Sequence record: PX651718.1
DNA length: 52,949 bases
Origin: a phage
Strand: one strand, 5' to 3'
A program made the translations under genes and the position numbers. Below, piece by piece: positions 4,331-52,949 of this stretch (position 1 is the stretch's first letter; each line of letters begins with the position of its first letter). The notes beneath the pieces were generated by a model. The model was not told the origin of the DNA. It did not search any database and was given only the letters and a program-made list of their open reading frames with translations.

Positions 4331-6265
4331 GTGTTGTATCCTTGGGAAAATATGTATGCCAGTGACATTGAAACAACTGGTTTGTTGGAGCAAATGCGTA
4401 AGCAAGCTGCACCACGTCTTCACAACATCGGATATATTGATGTTCTAACCCGTGAAGAAACTGTAATAGAGTGGACCGACAGAAAGTCTATCCAGGCATT
4501 TCTGGATACAGGCCCAACATTAATCATGCACAACGGCGCAACCTTTGACTTTGAAGCACTGAGGTTCCTGGGCTACGACGTTTCAAAATGTACACTAATT
4601 GATACTTTGTTTATCAGTTGGTATCTGCAACCTCGTCGTGTTAAGCACGGCTTAGAAGGTTACGGCGAAGAGTTTGGTGTGCCAAAACCAGTCATTGAAG
4701 ATTGGGAAAATCAAACTCAAGAAGAGTACAACCATCGTGTGATGGAAGACTGCAAGATTCAGTTGAAGCTGTGGGAACAGCAATACATTCAACTATTGAA
4801 GACTTATAAATCTCCTAGCGAAGTTAAGCGCTTCGTTGAATATCTGATGACAAAAGCTCGTCAACAAGTTATTCAACAACGTACTCGCTGGAAGTTAAAC
4901 ATTGAGAAGGCATTGGCATTTAAGGCCAAGCTGGAGCCAATGATTAAAGAGAAGACGGACGCATTGGAAGCATCAATGCCACGTATTCCAGAATATGTTA
5001 TCAAAACCCGTCCAGCTAAATGCCACAAGTTGAACGGACAATTGTCTTCCGCTGGCATAAAGTGGAAAGCTATTTGTGATGCAAACGGCTTGGACTGGAA
5101 AGACCCAGACCTGGCTATCAAGGTTCTTAAAGGTTACAAGAATCCTAACGCTGGTTCTCATGTGCAAATTAAAGATTGGTTGTTCAGCCTGGGCTGGGAA
5201 CCGGAAACCTTTAAGTTTGACCGTAACAAGGAAACAGGTGAAACTCGCCAGATTCCACAAATCACTGTGAAGGATGAAGATGGCAATCCTGAAATATGTC
5301 CGAGCTTGCATAAGCTGGCGGAAAGAAACCCCGACTCTGGTATTCAACATCTTATTGGGATGGGCGTGTATAAACACCGTCTGTCTGTTGTTAATGGCTT
5401 CCTTCGCGACGTCGATGAAGATGGGTTCCTTACTGCACGATGCGGTGGCCTTACCAATACTTTACGCCTTAAACATCGCGAACTTGTTAACCTCCCTTCT
5501 ATTCGTGTATTTGGCGGTGAAGAACTGCGTTCAATGCTGGAAGCGTGGCGTGAAGACTACGAACAGTTAGGCTCTGACTTGTGCTCACTGGAAGACCGTT
5601 GTAAACACCACTTCCAGTGGATGTATGACCCTGAATACGTTAAGAAGCAGTTGGCACCAGACTATGATGCCCACCTTGCAATCGGCGTAATTGGTGGATT
5701 TATTACAGAACAGGAATCTCAGGACCACAAGGACGGGATTAAGAAGTGTAAACAACGTCCAATGTTTAAGACCACAAACTATGCTTGTCAGTATGGTGCT
5801 GGTGTGCCAACTGTAGCTCGTTCTGCTGGCTGTGACCAGACTACTGCTGCACGACTGCATAAAGCATATTGGGACTTGAACTGGTCTATTAAAGAGATTG
5901 CTGCGAACACCAAAGTTATCACAGTTGATGGTCAGATGTGGCAACAGAATCCAGTAAACAAATTCTGGTATTCGTTGCGTACAGAGAAAGACCGATTCTC
6001 CACATTGTGTCAGGGTACTGGTGCATATGTGTTTGATATCTGGTGTAACAACATCATTGCAATTTGTAATGAACGTTGGGGCTGTGACCCGCTTCTGTCT
6101 GGACAATTCCATGATGAATTGATTCTCCAAGTTAAGAAAGGTTTCCGTGATTTGTGGACGGACTTGCTTAATGAAGCAATGGACCGGACCAACAAAGAAC
6201 TTAAACTTAACCGTGATTGTGCATGTGATGTACAGTTCGGTGATAATTATGCGGAGATTCACTAA
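4331..6265 (+). CDS. DNA polymerase, family A (T7 gp5-like) with 3'-5' exonuclease domain
   Basis: Exo I motif DIETTG; pol motif B (KQRPMFKTTNYACQYGAG); motif C (QFHDELIL); GTG start at 4331 with GGAG 8 nt upstream. Confidence 0.9.
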   Translation: MLYPWENMYASDIETTGLLEQMRKQAAPRLHNIGYIDVLTREETVIEWTDRKSIQAFLDTGPTLIMHNGATFDFEALRFLGYDVSKCTLIDTLFISWYLQPRRVKHGLEGYGEEFGVPKPVIEDWENQTQEEYNHRVMEDCKIQLKLWEQQYIQLLKTYKSPSEVKRFVEYLMTKARQQVIQQRTRWKLNIEKALAFKAKLEPMIKEKTDALEASMPRIPEYVIKTRPAKCHKLNGQLSSAGIKWKAICDANGLDWKDPDLAIKVLKGYKNPNAGSHVQIKDWLFSLGWEPETFKFDRNKETGETRQIPQITVKDEDGNPEICPSLHKLAERNPDSGIQHLIGMGVYKHRLSVVNGFLRDVDEDGFLTARCGGLTNTLRLKHRELVNLPSIRVFGGEELRSMLEAWREDYEQLGSDLCSLEDRCKHHFQWMYDPEYVKKQLAPDYDAHLAIGVIGGFITEQESQDHKDGIKKCKQRPMFKTTNYACQYGAGVPTVARSAGCDQTTAARLHKAYWDLNWSIKEIAANTKVITVDGQMWQQNPVNKFWYSLRTEKDRFSTLCQGTGAYVFDIWCNNIIAICNERWGCDPLLSGQFHDELILQVKKGFRDLWTDLLNEAMDRTNKELKLNRDCACDVQFGDNYAEIH

Positions 6266-40425: not shown

Positions 40426-41074
40426 GTAAAAGAATACGGAGAAATATTACTCACTTCGTTCGTGAGTTACCGCATGTCATGTTGAATCATTCTAGAAACA
40501 TTTAGCATGTCAGCTTTGAGTTACAGCGTTGTAATGATGTGGCAATCATTGAACTCCCTGGGTTGGCCACCTACAGTTCCAGCAACCATGACTTAGAGTA
40601 GGGATATCTATCCGAAACTTGTACTTCACCTATAGCATGTTCAATTGCGACAATATTGCTCCATCTCCTATTATAAAGGCCCACCCACAAGCCGGGAGAT
40701 AACTTTGGTAATATTGGAACTTTTGGACATGCTTCTTTCTTTCTTTCTACAAGAAATCGAAAGAAGAGAAGAGTCGGAGCAAAGCCTCTCGTTTACACGA
40801 AGAAGCCGCCCGATTTTGAGCAACAAATATTGTGACAATTGCGTCGCAGTATGGCATGTAAATATTGCTACAAATTGGCATGTTGGAATGTGGCAGAATT
40901 GTTAGAGGACTAATCACCTCGAAGATACAATCGTCTACCAATCTGGCATGTTAATTTTGTAACAGTATTTGTGCCAATTTCGCATGTAATAGCTGTATCA
41001 GTATTGACCCAATATTCTTGCAACCCGCATGAATACTGGCTTCCAGCCAAGCGAAGGCTTTATCATCGCATGTA

Positions 41075-41091
41075 AATATTGTGACAATATT
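41075..41091 (+). promoter_or_regulatory. perfect 17-bp palindrome AATATTG-TGA-CAATATT preceded by GCATGTA
   Basis: Exact inverted repeat; GCATGT(A/T)AAT...TTG..ACAA units recur at 40853, 40945, 40981 and 41217. Confidence 0.4.
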
Positions 41092-41128
41092 GGGATAAAA
41101 CCCTTTATTTAATTAGTTTTATTATGCT

Positions 41129-41153
41129 GTACATGGTCGGTTTTCCGTACCTG
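41129..41153 (+). repeat. third copy of the GTACATGGTCGG...GTACCTG direct repeat
   Basis: GTACATGGTCGG is identical to 37885-37896. Confidence 0.5.
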
Positions 41154-41285
41154 CTTGCTCCAATCTTAATGTGCCAAATACGTTAAGTATGGGAGTAAAC
41201 CTGTAATTAATGGTGCATGTTTAATTGTGACAAAATTCGTCTATTTGGCAGATGAGTTAGTTGCAATTAAGCATGTTCATTTATC

Positions 41286-41301
41286 ATTAGTTGCATGTGA
41301 A
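41286..41301 (+). promoter_or_regulatory. conserved promoter-like motif ATTAGTTGCATGTGAA
   Basis: 15 of 16 match to consensus. Confidence 0.4.
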
Positions 41302-41399
41302 TAAGACCAAATCTCTGTAAATTCTGCTGAAATTGTGTGACAGATTTTAGAGAGATTATGTCTCCAAGCTAATCATTGTAGTTTTTCGACACTTTGTGT

Positions 41400-41440
41400 G
41401 TCACATATATAGCCTGTGAAAAACGTGTGGTATATTGCTG
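41400..41440 (+). promoter_or_regulatory. possible host sigma70-type promoter with extended -10 (TGGTATATT)
   Basis: TGnTATATT at 41428-41436 about 150 nt upstream of the first early ORF; weak -35. Confidence 0.25.
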
Positions 41441-41591
41441 GATTGCAACGCGCCCACCAGACTAGGAAGTCACTGATGGCGGCACACACAGGAATACTAT
41501 ATAACTCCCTACAACTTTAAGGTGGATTGAGGTAAGACAAGACCTCCACAATCGTTCTGTAGGGAGTTTTCCTTTAACTTTGGAGAATAAA

Positions 41592-48972: not shown

Positions 48973-49276
48973 TTTAAATATTGCTGAACTTGAGGCTGGA
49001 TTGATTGTTCACCACCAGCCTCGAAACACTTTCTATCGTATTCTTGGGCCTACAAAGATTAAAACTCACTGCGGAAGTTGGGTGGATGGGTTTGCTTACC
49101 AAGAAGTGAAGAAGTACGGGGGACCATACTTTCTTAAGTATTGATTCTTCTACCATCTACACACGACCGAAAGAGCTATTTGACTCAGACTGGAAAACAC
49201 TATAGTTCCAGGCGGGTTTCTTCGAAGTGCCAAGCGGGTTTTGTGCTCGCATTGGCCTTCGGCTTTAGTCTGAAAC

Positions 49277-49292
49277 ATTAGTGGGATTTGAT
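49277..49292 (+). promoter_or_regulatory. promoter-like motif variant ATTAGTGGGATTTGAT preceded by TCTGAAAC
   Basis: Upstream TCTGAAAC is shared with the copies at 49417 and 51572. Confidence 0.35.
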
Positions 49293-49416
49293 TCTGACCA
49301 CTTAGGGAAGAAAGGCATTATACACTTATCGCCAAATGGGTGTCAAGCACTTTCTTCATTTATTTAATTTATTCTTATTATTCTTTTTGTTTGGAATATT
49401 GGAATAATTCTGAAAC

Positions 49417-49432
49417 ATTAGTTGGAGATGAA
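49417..49432 (+). promoter_or_regulatory. promoter-like motif ATTAGTTGGAGATGAA preceded by TCTGAAAC
   Basis: Immediately upstream of the ATG at 49433; the motif's GGAG doubles as RBS. Confidence 0.45.
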
Positions 49433-49609
49433 ATGATTAAAGTTCTGGAAAAAGATACAGTAACTTTCACACGCCAATGTCGGTTATGTGCTTCTGTTGT
49501 GTCTTATGAATTCTCGGACTTAAAGATATACACAGGGAAGAATGACCGAGGATATTTCGCATATAGATTTATCACTTGTCCTGTTTGCAAGAAAGACATT
49601 CGACATTAG
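49433..49609 (+). CDS. small zinc-ribbon protein (58 aa)
   Basis: CRLCAS ... CPVCKK; ATG at 49433, in frame with track ORF 49340..49609. Confidence 0.5.
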   Translation: MIKVLEKDTVTFTRQCRLCASVVSYEFSDLKIYTGKNDRGYFAYRFITCPVCKKDIRH

Positions 49610-49620
49610 TTGGAATTGAA
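49605..49620 (+). promoter_or_regulatory. promoter-like motif ATTAGTTGGAATTGAA
   Basis: 14 of 16 match; followed by about 640 nt without a convincing ORF. Confidence 0.4.
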
Positions 49621-50255
49621 ACAACATCAGATAAGAACTTTGTAACTAGGTAGTCCGTCTGGTACCAAGGCGTGTGAGAACGTTCGATTCGTTCTACAAA
49701 GTTCTTTTCGATGGAATGTTTCCATCATATTACATTTATCTTTTAACATAGGCCATAGGGCCGGAATACTTCTTCGCAGAAAAGCTATTCACTTGTTATA
49801 GGCGATGTATTGGGATGAATTGGAACTAAATAAGCAAGCTGTTAGGGCTGAATAATTAGAGGGTTATGCCTCATGCTTATGTTAGTCATTCGAAAATAGG
49901 TTTGTGCCACAAGCTGCTGGTGCTCTGAGGAAGTCGGACAAACAGGGCTTAGAGTGGCATAATCCGCACAAAACCGCGCCACCAGCTATGCCAAAGCGGG
50001 TGGATTGGGTGAATGTATTGGGAAGGGTTGCAAAGCCTCTGTGACACGCCTGAGCCGCAAGGCGACGACACTCATGTGATTAGCGTATCGCACCCTAACG
50101 GGAGTAACCCTTCACCAATGCAGTTATCCAGAATTGACACAAACGGTAGGCAGCGGCCCGATTTTCGGCCTTCCTGCGCTACCCTGTGGCCTGTTCATGG
50201 GCCAAAAGATGAGAAGAGAAGTCACAAACACTGAATCGAAAATTGGAGAGTTCCT
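49621..50255 (+). ncRNA. candidate structured non-coding RNA region (unclassified) downstream of a promoter-like motif
   Basis: No credible ORF on either strand; several stable hairpins including tRNA T-arm-like GAGAACG-TTCGATT-CGTTCTA with acceptor-like pairing CTTTGTA/TACAAAG (49638-49702). Confidence 0.3.
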
Positions 50256-50576
50256 ATGATTCGCAAGCATTCTGCTAAAGTTTTGACGTTGAGAAATGTA
50301 CTAATGTTCCCTTCAAGTGGGGAAGGAGAGGAAGAAACAATCCACTTCGTTCTCGTTGGTGGGCGTTGGTACTATAACGGCACCAATTCTTTCCACGTAA
50401 GTCTGTCGGAGAAAGATGGATTCTGGAAGCACACCTTTAAGGAGTTGCTTGAAAGCAGTGCCAACTACACCCTTGCCGAAGTTAAGAAATATTTCTACTA
50501 CGGCCCAAACAAGTCCATGCAAATCGCAACTCGCAATTGGACAACAAACCAACCGATTTACGGAGTTCCATTTTGA
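50256..50576 (+). CDS. hypothetical protein
   Basis: Track ORF with GGAGAG RBS. Confidence 0.55.
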   Translation: MIRKHSAKVLTLRNVLMFPSSGEGEEETIHFVLVGGRWYYNGTNSFHVSLSEKDGFWKHTFKELLESSANYTLAEVKKYFYYGPNKSMQIATRNWTTNQPIYGVPF

Positions 50577-52002: not shown

Positions 52003-52908
52003 GTTGCCGATGGCAAACTTGAGAGACTAAGCTAAATCGATCTGGCATGCACTGGAAGTTTTCCGGTGCTGCCTTGAACCCACTCTGAAAGGAAGAGTGG
52101 GCTTCAATGAGCATTCTTGTGATTAGAGTTGGGAGGAAGGCCGATGCCCAAGCTCATGGCCCAGACGAGAGTGTTCATTGAAGTAGTTTTCTGAGTCTTA
52201 CGACGGGCCTAAACTGCCTGGAGTTATTGCGACTGTTTTATTCATTTAAAATAAATGCAAATGATTCTGAAATGCGAGTTGCGGCTTAATTAAATTTAAG
52301 TCCTCTCCGTGGTCTTCCAATCCCACGTAACCAAATTTGGCGCATTGTGGCTTCGAGATGTGATTAATAAATCGGAGCAATAATTAATTTGTATTCTGCG
52401 ATGCAATGCAGGCTTAAGTCCCTCAGTGCGCGTGGGGATGTGACAGAGTACAAACTTAATTATGCAGTTGGATATTTCTAGAGGACGGACGAGCACACTG
52501 GAATGTCTTCAATTGGTTTAGTGTGAGAAGCTATGCCAATATGAAACGTAACTCCTTGGGGAAGTGCTCCTCTGGATTTCCCTCCACACAGGAATCTCAA
52601 GCCTGTGGCAGCGACTTCGAAGCTGCACTGCGTAACCTAAATTCACCCTAAAGTGAGTTGCCCTGAGTATGGAAATAAACTGCTCATAACCGATGGTATC
52701 TACAAAGGTAGATTAAATCAGGTTGCCTGTTGGTACTTGGGGGTTCAACACCTGCTTGCACTCGCAAAGTAGTGCCTTGTACCTGAGATGAAGTGAGTCG
52801 GGACCATCAATCCCACGTTATGTCAAAACACAGTAGGCGGCTCACAGATTCTACAAGCCTCGCAGTTCGGGGAAAACCTGCGTTATCAAAACCCCCCCCT
52901 CATTATTT

Positions 52909-52949
52909 GGACGAGTAGCTCAGAAGGTTTGCATTGTGCTCAGTCAGGT
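52909..52949 (+). tRNA. 5' portion of the same tRNA (acceptor 5' strand GGACGAG, D-arm) interrupted by about 20 nt of extra sequence
   Basis: GGACGAG at 52909-52915 is the exact complement of CTCGTCC at 44-50; GCTCAG occurs twice (52918-52923 and 52938-52943) around a 14-nt insert; joining 52923 to 52944 and on to position 1 gives a standard 75-nt cloverleaf. Confidence 0.5.

Follow-up and report, generated by a model that had tools for sequence, protein, structure and literature searches.

Locus and promoters

The window analysed here, a whole stretch of 52,949 nt of phage DNA (PX651718.1), comes from a Carltongylesvirus (Chaseviridae) with ~99% identity to Escherichia phage PO103-1. A gap separates the 'early' antirestriction (ArdA) module, which the host polymerase transcribes, and the terminator of that module from the first genes of the next operon, whose leading start codon is at 50256. 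Carltongylesvirus, Sabourvirus, Faunusvirus, Loessnervirus and an Aeromonas phage all have the gap at this place, and the proteins neighbouring the element that it holds all belong to families without an assigned function. A divergent sigma-70 promoter (49346-49317, - strand), perfectly conserved, lies just upstream.

An earlier note on this DNA had pointed to a promoter-like motif in front of the gap, which we identified as a consensus phage-polymerase promoter. Its core, ACATTAGTTGGA, at 49603-49614, is present in 4 perfect copies in the window and in 2 more with one mismatch; all 6 copies are on the + strand and have the extended consensus ACATTAGTTGGAwnTGAA in common. When up to 2 mismatches were allowed, the motif gave 18 matches versus 6.0 ± 2.7 in shuffled sequences. 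Homologous sites in phage SA91KD are annotated as phiEcoM-GJ1-type promoters. The copy that precedes the gap, P3, is the last of three tandem promoters (49275, 49415 and 49603), all within 330 bp, and its TAG doubles as the stop codon of an upstream 58-aa gene:

49603..49622, + strand: P3, promoter of the phage single-subunit RNA polymerase (ACATTAGTTGGAATTGAAAC), supported by motif statistics, consensus and the SA91KD annotation

The promoter consensus of the Chaseviridae is still given as unidentified in the ICTV profile, and the present motif data strengthen it.

Coding capacity of the gap

The ~640 nt after the 49603 promoter contain no conserved ORF. ORFs of up to 73 aa are present between 49610 and 50255 (the longest at 50013-50234, + strand), none of them conserved, and the earlier view that no credible ORF occurs before 50256 holds in that sense. 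The 73-aa frame is unbroken in just 5 of 20 close relatives, as indels shift the frame in most of them, and no ORF of the stretch matched a Pfam or PHROG family. GenBank records disagree with one another, different tiny ORFs being called from record to record. We rejected a protein-coding reading, given that the 73-aa ORF and the others are unconserved and without a family match. A 23-codon ORF at 49336-49407, formerly proposed to encode a toxin-like peptide, does exist in this genome, but in most relatives either indels in T-runs disrupt the frame or the start codon has gone, and it has no family match; this proposal was dropped. Relatives share the non-coding gap and do not have ordinary genes in its place. 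By these sequence criteria, the interval 49618-50240 (+ strand) is non-coding for protein.

Modular architecture of the element

The gap is occupied by an element of ~620 nt with many predicted hairpins, in which we distinguished the modules M1, an invariant hairpin, M3, M4, M5, Pa and M7. Its features are as follows.

49618..49628, + strand: conserved leader GAAACAACAUC, at or near the transcript 5' end, invariant in Carltongylesvirus, 4HA13, phiA050, Faunus and L039
49630..49709, + strand: M1, closing helix P1 (49630-49643 with 49696-49709) around a hypervariable 45-65-nt insert
49710..49726, + strand: near-invariant hairpin GAUGGAA-UGU-UUCCAUC with flanks UUUCG and A, identical in 20/20 close relatives
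49738-49747, + strand: conserved AUCUUUUAAC, 3' of the invariant hairpin
49751-49762, + strand: small hairpin GGCC-AUAG-GGCC
49763..49823, + strand: M2, variable linker with weakly supported small hairpins
49824..49886, + strand: M3, three-way junction, two-sided changes in 9/15 pairs
49830-36 with 49874-80: M3 outer helix, AUAAGCA with UGCUUAU
49837-49: M3 mini-hairpin, AGCU-GUUAG-GGCU
Within M3: conserved linker GAAUAAUUA
49859-72: M3 inner hairpin, GAGG-GUUAUG-CCUC
49899..49965, + strand: M4, bulged hairpin of about 67-75 nt with a 5-bp stem cap and pentaloop GGAAG (49929-49933)
49974..50000, + strand: M5, small hairpin (CCGCG...CGCGG type), 1 covarying pair (AU in 12, CG in 4)
50005..50131, + strand: Pa domain, ~130 nt, long irregular helix closing a multi-branch interior
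50139-50145, + strand: invariant single-stranded ACAAACG, of which CAAACG is unchanged in 13/13 lineages
50145-50183, + strand: M7a, hairpin GGUAG...CUACC, inner CCGA-UUU-UCGG
50184-50208, + strand: M7b, hairpin abutting the region of the next gene's ribosome-binding site
50221..50258, + strand: 3' boundary, conserved GUCACAAAC followed by AAAUUGGAGAGUUCCUAUG, where translation of the next gene is initiated

The modules keep their order and their lengths, and domain 3 measures 240-286 nt in all lineages. The 5' parts M1 and M2 are hypervariable; Pa and M7 are universal among the lineages, except that Pa is missing from GJ1. M2 is replaced by unrelated sequence in relatives and its helices vary mostly on one side. 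The invariant hairpin has 1 full copy in the window; when up to 3 mismatches were allowed, the only additional matches were on its own reverse strand, the sequence being near-palindromic, and at one site, 22513. Covariation in this hairpin was seen in distant lineages, as GAUGGC/GCCAUC in L045 and GAUAGC/GCUAUC in Y2, SSEM1 and Fifi44. An AT-rich conserved tract of ~24 nt (49727-49750, ...AUCUUUUAAC) follows M1. M3 has a nearly invariant 21-nt loop, and the pattern AAGCUnwURGGGCUGAAwAAUUwGAG is kept in most lineages, the loop departing from it in the TH37/GJ1-type Carltongylesvirus variant and in the Loessnerviruses. M4 is missing from Loessnervirus; its loop is GRAAG in all 7 lineages folded, on helices that differ in sequence (GCCAC/GUGGC, GCCUAU/AUAGGC, GCCAUUU/AAAUGGC, GGCUCA/UGAGCC and GGCCUU/AAGGCC). 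M5 is the module for which the predicted fold is weakest. The Pa helix pairs a 5' strand (50005-50031) with a 3' strand (50104-50131) over ~27 bp (25-28 pairs), with 1-nt bulges in most lineages, and two hairpins lie in its interior, one hypervariable (about 50041-50092) and one small (CCC-UAAC-GGG). In M7, the compensatory changes GGUAG/CUACC to GGUUG/CAACC and CCGA/UCGG to CCUA/UAGG were found. Since modules are lineage-specific, with M4 absent from Loessnervirus, Pa absent from GJ1 and M1 swapped in many relatives, the element is probably a chain of semi-independent modules and not one obligatory global fold.

Several further pairings were considered and rejected. The long-range pairings predicted by RNAalifold (promoter-SD, UUCGA/UCGAA and UGAC/GUCA) were dropped because all are invariant and the promoter-SD pairing involves untranscribed promoter DNA. 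Pairing of the leader GAAACAACAUC with the 5' half of the invariant hairpin was set aside, covariation in L045 and Loessnervirus favouring the local hairpin instead. An M3-Pa kissing interaction (GUUAGGG/CCCUAAC) is conserved nowhere outside Carltongylesvirus.

The tRNA-like 5' module

The minihelix in M1 had been noticed before as tRNA-like, and it is present: CTTTGTA (49638-49644) pairs with TACAAAG (49695-49701), and the T-arm-like hairpin is AGAACG-TTCGATT-CGTTCT. In this genome the M1 insert ends in this hairpin (49677-49695, loop UUCGAUU), stacked on P1. In the alignment of close relatives, two-sided changes were found in 6/8 outer P1 pairs and 4/6 T-stem pairs. At least 5 insert variants share the one closing helix, and the 5' module is exchanged between close relatives. 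A UUCRA T-loop is seen in most variants, with UUCGA or UUCAA loops in those of the window, SA91KD, 4HA13, MLP1, BSBP01 and L039; it is missing in Pel53 and Faunus.

A gene or pseudogene for a tRNA, or one resembling tmRNA, perhaps acquired from the host, would account for the canonical UUCRA-loop T-arm stacked on the terminal helix in most variants, and also for an additional anticodon-arm-like hairpin in the BSBP01 variant. However, P1 has 13-20 bp in place of 7, both an anticodon arm and a free 3' end are lacking, and the Pel53 and Faunus variants are without the T-arm. The 3' strand of P1 is continuous, through UUUUC, with the next hairpin, and a CCA is not encoded. ARAGORN found no tRNA or tmRNA (permuted forms included) in the window, nor any inside the element across ~24 related loci, a set that leaves out Loessnervirus, the phiA050-like UViG and metagenome loci. 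At E<=10, the element gave no hit to an Rfam tmRNA family or any other Rfam family beyond chance level, and the isolated 111-nt M1 piece gave no tRNA hit with cmscan. Three M1 variants were without a match in 5,426 complete E. coli genomes, a negative result for a host origin of the T-arm modules. The reading as a tRNA or tmRNA, already largely refuted, is barely credible. The pairing of the minihelix stands, and the failure of ARAGORN and the tRNA models agrees with the earlier remark that it cannot be completed into a cloverleaf; tRNA identity does not stand, the minihelix being one interchangeable version of a variable 5' module. The single call made by ARAGORN was a tRNA-Leu at 5646-5740 of locus L007, ~3 kb downstream of the GJ1 element and unrelated to it.

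Compensatory changes and folding

The alignment with related phages that had been suggested as a check showed compensatory changes in excess of both shuffled and slid controls. For 20 close relatives, RNAalifold predicted 168 pairs, 32 with compensatory changes. In a curated 150-pair structure for these relatives, 98.5% of cells were paired, and 32 pairs were double-changed, compared to 14.6 ± 2.4 in shuffled alignments (0/500; a control that overstates significance because the sequences are related to each other) and 4-6 with slid partners. Across genera, 14/26 Pa pairs were double-changed, versus 7.1 ± 1.6 when shuffled (0/500) and 3-7 when slid; in M3, using 11 sequences from 9 lineages, the change affected 9/15 pairs, versus 3.5 ± 1.4 when shuffled (0/500) and 1-4 when slid. 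More weight should be given to the slid-partner controls and to the helices compared across genera.

Independent folds gave the same Pa outer helix in 13/13 lineages, and independent MFE folds gave the same M4 architecture in 7/7. Duplexes between cognate Pa strands had a mean of -40.3 kcal/mol, compared to -21.9 for non-cognate strands, and none of 20,000 permutations was as good. A covariance model built here (R1) found exactly one + strand Pa copy, at 88-126 bits, in each genome having Pa. The further GC-rich stems of the earlier description are also borne out: G+C is 55% at 49900-50200 versus ~40% in the flanks, the element helices are rich in G-U pairs, and in this genome the MFE of the + strand is 29 kcal/mol below that of the - strand (z = -3.7 against dinucleotide shuffles). 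In four lineages the + strand was lower by 27-36 kcal/mol, and z lay between -3.4 and -8.3. Identity to the element of Mangalitsa is 95%, versus 88% across the surrounding 1.6 kb. Blocks with 75-90% nucleotide identity are retained in 4HA13, Faunus and phiA050 next to ArdA proteins that are just 31-34% identical. Collectively, cross-genus compensatory changes, converging MFE folds, + strand stability and the lack of a conserved ORF support the earlier proposal that the promoter-driven, ORF-less block encodes a structured RNA, and they indicate that base pairing and several unpaired motifs are under selection in all the Cleopatravirinae genera sampled. We put the probability that the stretch is a structured RNA element under purifying selection at about 0.9.

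Decayed genes, recombination scars between promoter repeats or chance hairpins could in principle leave a non-functional spacer here, and the region is indeed a mosaic in which modules are swapped, inserted or deleted between relatives and in which GJ1 has an inserted HNH endonuclease gene. Nevertheless, conservation exceeds that of the flanking genes and extends across genera, compensatory substitutions are well over both controls, and module lengths and order are kept, including the 240-286 nt of domain 3; a spacer without function is very improbable.

The same data bear on the possibility that the locus is a primary DNA replication origin primed by phage-polymerase transcripts, in which RNA structure would serve primer formation as in ColE1 RNA II. 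Three tandem phage promoters within 330 bp, the AT-rich conserved tract at 49727-49750 and the perfectly conserved divergent sigma-70 promoter would all suit an origin, and the position mirrors that of phi1.1A/phi1.1B and the origin in T7. On the other hand, compensatory changes that keep G-U pairs on one strand over ~500 nt are unexplained at the DNA level, the T7 origin requires no RNA structure, and no mark of an RNA-DNA transition is present here. The AT-rich tract is just ~24 nt long and the rest is G+C-rich and structured. Cumulative GC skew has no inflection at the locus, a measure that is uninformative where all genes share one strand. An origin is improbable on this evidence, even though the disruption tolerated by GJ1 (see below) would have its counterpart in the T7 primary origin, which is dispensable.

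Distribution among phages

Syntenic homologous gaps behind ArdA were found in every genus sampled, as well as in the Aeromonas phage and in two lineages of viral contigs. Two 17-mers used as exact patterns against IMG/VR gave two real further lineages, L039 and L045; the remaining matches were judged to be due to chance because they had no flanking similarity and no R1 hit. A 26-nt degenerate M3 pattern matched only 2 metagenome contigs, both Carltongylesvirus-like, and gave 0 hits in 185,579 species genomes. A protein-anchored locus search returned only 5 viral contigs, and tblastn with ArdA reached no further genera. Among the genomes and contigs scanned, the element was seen only in strictly lytic Chaseviridae of Gammaproteobacteria and not in prophages. 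In phiEcoM-GJ1, a viable phage, an HNH endonuclease gene replaces M5 and the 5' strand of Pa, and a search with R1 found no Pa. We found no paper in the literature on Chaseviridae that describes a non-coding RNA or an origin there.

The 3' end and the relation to downstream genes

The 3' end of the element directly meets a conserved ribosome-binding site, and no intrinsic-terminator-like site was found inside the element, at its end or before the next gene. GUCACA and UUGGAGA..UUCCUAUG are kept across genera, even with a different downstream gene. Part of the SD can pair with UUCC in a small local hairpin, though this pairing is not robust: the pairing probabilities were inconsistent between lineages (0.47 to 1.0), and riboswitch-like sequestration of the SD was rejected. 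In Loessnervirus and Faunus a phage promoter lies exactly at the Pa 5' end, and the block can therefore be more than one transcription unit.

This arrangement is what would be expected if the element were a cis-acting structured leader or processing module within a polycistronic middle mRNA, with RNase III hairpins resembling T7 R sites and a 3' end that sets translation of the first gene. T7-type phages process their mRNAs at RNase III hairpins, and Pa is predicted to be a long, nearly continuous duplex with small bulges, which the Loessnervirus and Faunus promoter would place at the extreme transcript 5' end, like a 5' stabiliser hairpin. The absence of a terminator before the next gene, the small hairpin at the SD, and the initiation region AAAUUGGAGAGUUCCUAUG and upstream GUCACA, which travel with the element across genera whichever gene follows, all favour such a leader. 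Weighing against it, ~620 nt, seven modules and near-invariant unpaired motifs (the 21-nt M3 loop, GRAAG and ACAAACG) far exceed what processing or stabilising needs, the predicted SD pairing varies between lineages, and the element is better conserved than the genes under its supposed control. We regard a leader of this kind as rather unlikely.

A proposed mode of action

In the explanation that we prefer, the element would be a conserved structured RNA that the phage polymerase transcribes at a high level from the three tandem promoters, its RNA being the first product of the phage-polymerase phase. The transcript would fold into an 'ornate' multi-domain RNA and would act as RNA, in an accessory and non-essential role. 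Host nucleases might cut the RNA free of the downstream mRNA: the ~27-bp helix of Pa could plausibly serve as a substrate for RNase III, and the T-loop minihelix and AU-rich tracts as sites for RNase P or RNase E. Once freed, the stable RNA could then bind or sequester a host or phage partner, as proposed for GOLLD and ROOL, and the swappable T-loop module may offer a tRNA-elbow-like docking surface. We infer the accessory character from the HNH replacement of M5 and the Pa 5' strand in GJ1 and from the exchanged 5' modules. Taken as a whole, with high-level transcription, release and partner binding included, this explanation has slightly less than even odds. That the element is a released, trans-acting accessory ncRNA is plausible, at odds somewhat further below even: with no terminator and a 3' end running into a ribosome-binding site, it may never be a separate molecule, and a cis-acting leader fits this equally well.

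More tentatively, and with some doubt, we suggest that the element represents an unrecognised class of large 'ornate' phage RNA, akin in function to GOLLD and ROOL but with an unrelated sequence and fold, made in bulk by a T7-type polymerase when transcription passes from host to phage and working as a free machine or decoy. Options for such a role would include display of a tRNA-elbow-like T-loop, sequestration of a host factor or defence protein, and self-assembly.

Bacteria and phages have few classes of large ncRNA with an extensive conserved structure (rRNA, RNase P, tmRNA, self-splicing introns, OLE, GOLLD, ROOL and few others), and the functions of the phage-borne classes are unsolved partly because their hosts are hard to handle. 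Lytic coliphages such as flopper, which form plaques on E. coli K-12, carry the present element behind a simple T7-like promoter, and natural 'mutants' are at hand in GJ1, which has no Pa, and in the at least 5 alternative 5' modules of relatives; deletion, swap and trans-complementation experiments, probing and cryo-EM should consequently be straightforward. If the reading as an ornate RNA is true, the class sits in culturable, genetically tractable lytic phages of E. coli, Yersinia and Erwinia. The annotation is also corrected for ~50 GenBank phage genomes, in which the region is blank or filled with inconsistent tiny ORFs.

Comparison with known RNA classes and phage systems

Rfam 15 was searched at the gathering score for the whole window, at E<=10 for 49100-50400 and the isolated M1, and at E<=1 for nine related loci, and only chance-level hits were obtained (plastid UTR motifs, microRNAs and FourU, E 0.5-5). 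The covariance-model search proposed earlier was accordingly negative for known families and positive for our own model R1, which finds Pa in relatives. Because compensating mutations keep its shape across a whole subfamily of phages that use a T7-type polymerase and no known family matches, the element appears, as far as sequence can tell, to be a new large structured phage RNA unlike any known RNA family. No Rfam hit to group I introns (RF00028) was found at E<=10, and the genes on either side are both complete and share no relationship, which leaves no split exons. The HNH ORF is present only in phiEcoM-GJ1, where it replaces modules and is not placed in a loop, in contrast to the group I intron pattern.

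Like the T7 primary origin, which consists of the phi1.1A/phi1.1B promoters and an AT-rich region and is short and unstructured, the element has tandem phage promoters leading into a non-coding region at the early/phage-polymerase boundary, with a short, conserved AT-rich tract downstream; it differs in being long, G+C-rich in its 3' half and constrained by RNA pairing. With the RNase III hairpins of the T7 group it shares a setting in a phage with a single-subunit RNA polymerase, as a structured non-coding RNA between promoters and genes, and Pa is likewise a predicted imperfect duplex of at least 20 bp just upstream of a coding region. T7 RNase III sites, however, are single hairpins of about 60 nt, whereas the element has seven modules over ~620 nt and invariant unpaired motifs. 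T-loop motifs occur outside tRNA in tmRNA, RNase P RNA, T-box leaders and the tRNA-like stable RNAs C and D of phage T4. Independent M1 variants resemble them in a 5-6-bp stem with a 7-nt UUCRAnn loop stacked coaxially on the terminal helix; unlike tRNA, M1 has no cloverleaf, anticodon arm, 7-bp acceptor, discriminator or CCA end.

The large 'ornate' RNAs GOLLD and ROOL, borne by phages and prophages, have no known function and lie near tRNA genes; ROOL was shown to be non-essential, and in GOLLD the 3' region is conserved, whereas the 5' region, in which tRNAs are sometimes present, is variable (PMC12286853). Neither the GOLLD (RF01998) nor the ROOL (RF03087) model matched the window, the region searched at E<=10 or, at E<=1, eight other lineages. 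Both classes are characterised by assembly into homo-oligomeric nanocages. The element differs from both classes in having no tRNA genes but only a T-arm-like fragment, located in its variable part, and in being carried by lytic phages, behind a T7-type phage promoter, where it meets a ribosome-binding site without a terminator. It resembles both in being phage-carried and apparently accessory, with several hundred nucleotides of covarying structure and no coding capacity, and it resembles GOLLD further in its length of >500 nt, with a conserved 3' part (Pa and M7) and a variable 5' part (M1 and M2).

Organization of the element downstream of tandem phage promoters

About 50 Chaseviridae records (subfamily Cleopatravirinae, mostly Carltongylesvirus) matched the 1.6-kb region around the element, over which Escherichia phage PO103-1 was 99.1% identical to the window. 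The matching phages are lytic myoviruses of ~52 kb with a T7-like single-subunit RNA polymerase. Their promoters are listed as not yet identified in the ICTV profile, and the SA91KD record carries annotated 'phiEcoM-GJ1-type' promoters. The promoter-like motif of the earlier note was recovered as ACATTAGTTGGA at 49603 and is repeated on the + strand above shuffle expectation. Four perfect copies and two with one mismatch were found in the window, all six on the + strand with the common extended consensus ACATTAGTTGGAwnTGAA, and 18 copies were present at ≤ 2 mismatches compared with 6.0 ± 2.7 in shuffles. SA91KD annotates a hairpin after the early ArdA module as a terminator, and the element lies just downstream. 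Promoters and modules are as follows:

49275, 49415 and 49603, + strand: three tandem phage promoter copies (P1, P2 and P3), by motif match
49618–49628, + strand: conserved leader GAAACAACAUC, directly after the promoter
49630–49709, + strand: M1, a closing helix of 13–20 bp around a hypervariable insert, from comparison of relatives
49710–49726, + strand: invariant hairpin GAUGGAA-UGU-UUCCAUC, the same in 20/20 relatives, with conserved AUCUUUUAAC after it
49824–49886, + strand: M3, a three-way junction with nearly invariant AGCUGUUAGGGCUGAAUAAUUA on its 5′ side
49899–49965, + strand: M4, a bulged hairpin with a terminal GRAAG pentaloop
after M4, + strand: M5, a small hairpin
50005–50131, + strand: Pa domain, closed by a ~26–27-bp helix, from folds and the R1 model
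3′ end, + strand: invariant ACAAACG, hairpins M7a and M7b, GUCACAAAC, then the next gene's ribosome-binding site and start codon (50256)

The M1 insert has at least five unrelated versions among close relatives, most of which end in a T-arm-like hairpin that stacks on the closing helix and has a 5–6-bp stem and a UUCRAnn loop; those of Pel53 and Faunus are without it. No derivation of the M1 variants from E. coli tRNA genes was detectable. At least five wholly different versions, each self-complementary, were also found for the Pa interior hairpin, and the segment that runs from Pa, itself included, to the start codon measures 240–286 nt in all lineages. A ~55-nt RNA module (GGAGUCCAC, a hairpin, CCGAU..., and a second hairpin whose loop is UYUGGACA) was observed in phiA050 (L011, 2250–2320), an uncultured viral genome (L039, ~150–205) and SSEM1 (L052, ~1335–1395). 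It occupies differing element positions in these three distant lineages, like a mobile structural cassette; both stems show covariation, and the loop UGGAC, complementary to an upstream GUCCA, could possibly form a pseudoknot with it.

Upstream of the element, a perfect sigma-70 consensus promoter (TTGACA-N18-TATAAT, 49317–49346, − strand) is directed leftward, in antisense orientation to all phage genes, toward P1 and a terminator-like hairpin (49223–49269). Both hexamers are invariant in 19/19 Carltongylesvirus relatives, and the spacer varies in sequence and length (17 or 18). Host polymerase could make a short antisense RNA from this promoter, or the site could belong to an origin or to a transcription-interference switch. 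Three tandem phage promoters, a short AT-rich tract and the conserved divergent sigma-70 promoter just upstream would all suit a replication origin that is primed by RNA in the manner of the T7 primary origin; we regard this as an improbable identity for the element. A 58-aa CxxC...CxxC zinc-ribbon ORF (49433–49609) represents a genuine small gene (phrog_2834, E 3.5e-11), found in some relatives and missing from others. Promoter repeat copies on both of its sides resemble recombination joints, and the promoter TTAG provides the upstream ORF with its stop codon both at this gene and at 49281.

Conservation and coding potential of the gap

When relatives were checked for ordinary genes at this locus, every genus sampled had a non-coding gap of 630–860 nt, separated from the ArdA antirestriction gene upstream by one or two small genes. 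The gap was found in Carltongylesvirus, Sabourvirus 4HA13, Faunusvirus, Loessnervirus (Y2, SSEM1 and Fifi44) and Aeromonas phage phiA050, as well as in two uncultured viral genomes and two metagenome contigs. Between genera, gap blocks share 75–90% nucleotide identity, whereas the ArdA proteins are only 31–34% identical; within Carltongylesvirus the gap is also better conserved (95% in Mangalitsa versus 88% for coding flanks). Among 185,579 bacterial and archaeal species, no genome contained a degenerate 26-nt pattern drawn from the loop with the highest conservation; thus, as judged from sequence, the element is a property of these lytic phages and not of prophages or hosts. One Carltongylesvirus-like genome, 'Staphylococcus phage Pel53' (PP952070.1), lists Staphylococcus hyicus as host and is 87–89% identical to this coliphage region (ArdA, 85%); such a host is implausible for this family and may reflect a contaminant or labelling error.

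As the earlier note claimed, no credible ORF follows the promoter motif: ORFs in 49610–50255 reach at most 73 aa and all lack conservation. Of 20 close relatives, 5 keep the 73-aa frame intact; this frame had no match in Pfam or PHROG, and GenBank records are inconsistent on the tiny ORFs called within this stretch. The tRNA-like minihelix lies exactly where it was noted and cannot become a tRNA (ARAGORN, Rfam), and the GC-rich stems correspond to a G+C of up to 55% in 49900–50200. Together, the promoter, ORF, minihelix and stem checks confirm the earlier observation. A toxin-like peptide had been suggested for a 23-codon hydrophobic ORF (49336–49407) in the AT-rich region upstream of P2; this was not borne out, as most relatives have a frameshift in the ORF or lack its start. 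Three other stretches of 500–950 nt (40906–41579, 52003–52949 and 602–1099) have no + strand ORF ≥ 55 aa, and gave no Rfam match at gathering score and no Pa-model match.

Selection on RNA structure

RNAalifold on the 20 close relatives gave 168 pairs, 32 with compensatory changes (no control). With a curated 150-pair structure on the same alignment, 98.5% of cells were paired and both-sided changes occurred in 32 pairs, compared with 14.6 ± 2.4 in shuffles (0/500) and 4–6 on sliding 1–3 columns. In the Pa helix, 14/26 pairs were compensatory among 29 sequences aligned to R1, a covariance model of the Pa domain built from 13 lineages, compared with 7.1 ± 1.6 in shuffles (0/500) and 3–7 when slid. 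For the M3 junction (11 sequences, 9 lineages) the values were 9/15 versus 3.5 ± 1.4 (0/500); because of relatedness among the sequences, the shuffle control flatters all these numbers, and the structural argument is carried by the slid-partner controls and between-genus replacements. The hairpin at 49710–49726 covaries in distant lineages (GAUGGC/GCCAUC and GAUAGC/GCUAUC). Cognate Pa strands gave −40.3 kcal/mol versus −21.9 kcal/mol for non-cognate strands, with 0/20,000 permutations as good, and R1 found exactly one + strand copy per Pa-bearing genome (88–126 bits) and no match elsewhere. Despite differing helix sequences, single-sequence MFE folds shared the Pa helix in 13/13 lineages and the M4 architecture in 7/7. 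The + strand was 27–36 kcal/mol more stable than the − strand (z −3.4 to −8.3), which fits many G-U pairs and a + sense RNA. Taken together, covariation, convergent folds, + strand stability and the lack of a conserved ORF uphold the proposal that the ORF-less block is a structured RNA, and demonstrate a promoter-proximal, non-coding + strand block of RNA structure under purifying selection.

Natural variants

In the viable phage phiEcoM-GJ1, an HNH endonuclease gene (phrog_2340, E 9e-10) replaces M5 and the Pa 5′ strand, M1–M4 and M7 are retained, and R1 detected no Pa domain. This HNH-type ORF (133 aa; L007 2219–2620, window ~49966–50115) directly follows M4 with its own SD, also matches phrog_8048 HNH and is labelled 'putative exonuclease SbcC' in GenBank. 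M1 is freely swapped among relatives. From the viability of phiEcoM-GJ1 we infer that the element is accessory rather than essential. The element is unusually tractable because it combines K-12-plating coliphages, a T7-type promoter and natural domain-loss and module-swap variants.

Identity and proposed function

Of the checks proposed earlier, the Rfam covariance-model search yielded no known family, and comparison with related phages gave compensatory changes above controls. No Rfam match appeared in any lineage, permissive thresholds included, and the non-matches include tRNA, tmRNA, RNase P, 6S, group I and II introns, GOLLD, ROOL and HEARO. ARAGORN called nothing inside the element in the loci scanned, its lone call being a tRNA-Leu ~3 kb downstream in the phiEcoM-GJ1 locus. 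An intron was rejected because the flanking genes are whole. Neither the accessible literature nor Rfam 15 yielded a description of the element. It constitutes a new family that, by kind, joins the large structured phage RNAs and is not categorically new.

Located just past the early ArdA module and the annotated terminator hairpin, the element would be the first product of phage-polymerase transcription and so would be made in quantity. The main rival to a trans-acting product is a cis-acting leader, which we consider possible but rather unlikely. It is favoured by the lack of a terminator between the element and the next gene, by an initiation region conserved along with the element across genera, and by a promoter exactly at the Pa 5′ end in Loessnervirus and Faunus, where Pa would be the extreme 5′ end of the transcript. 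The full promoter CATTAGTTGGATGTGATTATAT overlaps the first Pa-helix bases in these phages (L051, L052, L053 and L012); its window equivalent (~49995–50015) is only a degenerate remnant, GGATTGGGTGAATG. The initiation region AAAUUGGAGAGUUCCUAUG (50232–50262) is conserved at the nucleotide level whichever gene follows, can fold a small hairpin pairing SD GGA with UCC before AUG, and could be a translational operator.

We tentatively favour (probability about 0.4), by analogy, a trans-acting RNA of GOLLD/ROOL type that is processed and stable. Its release might involve RNase III acting on Pa, or else RNase P or RNase E cutting close to the T-loop minihelix and AU-rich tracts. GOLLD and ROOL are ornate, phage-borne RNAs whose function is unknown, and at least ROOL is dispensable (PMC12286853). 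In GOLLD the 3′ part is conserved and the 5′ part variable, with room for tRNAs in the latter (PMC12286853); the element likewise combines conservation on its 3′ side with variability on its 5′ side.
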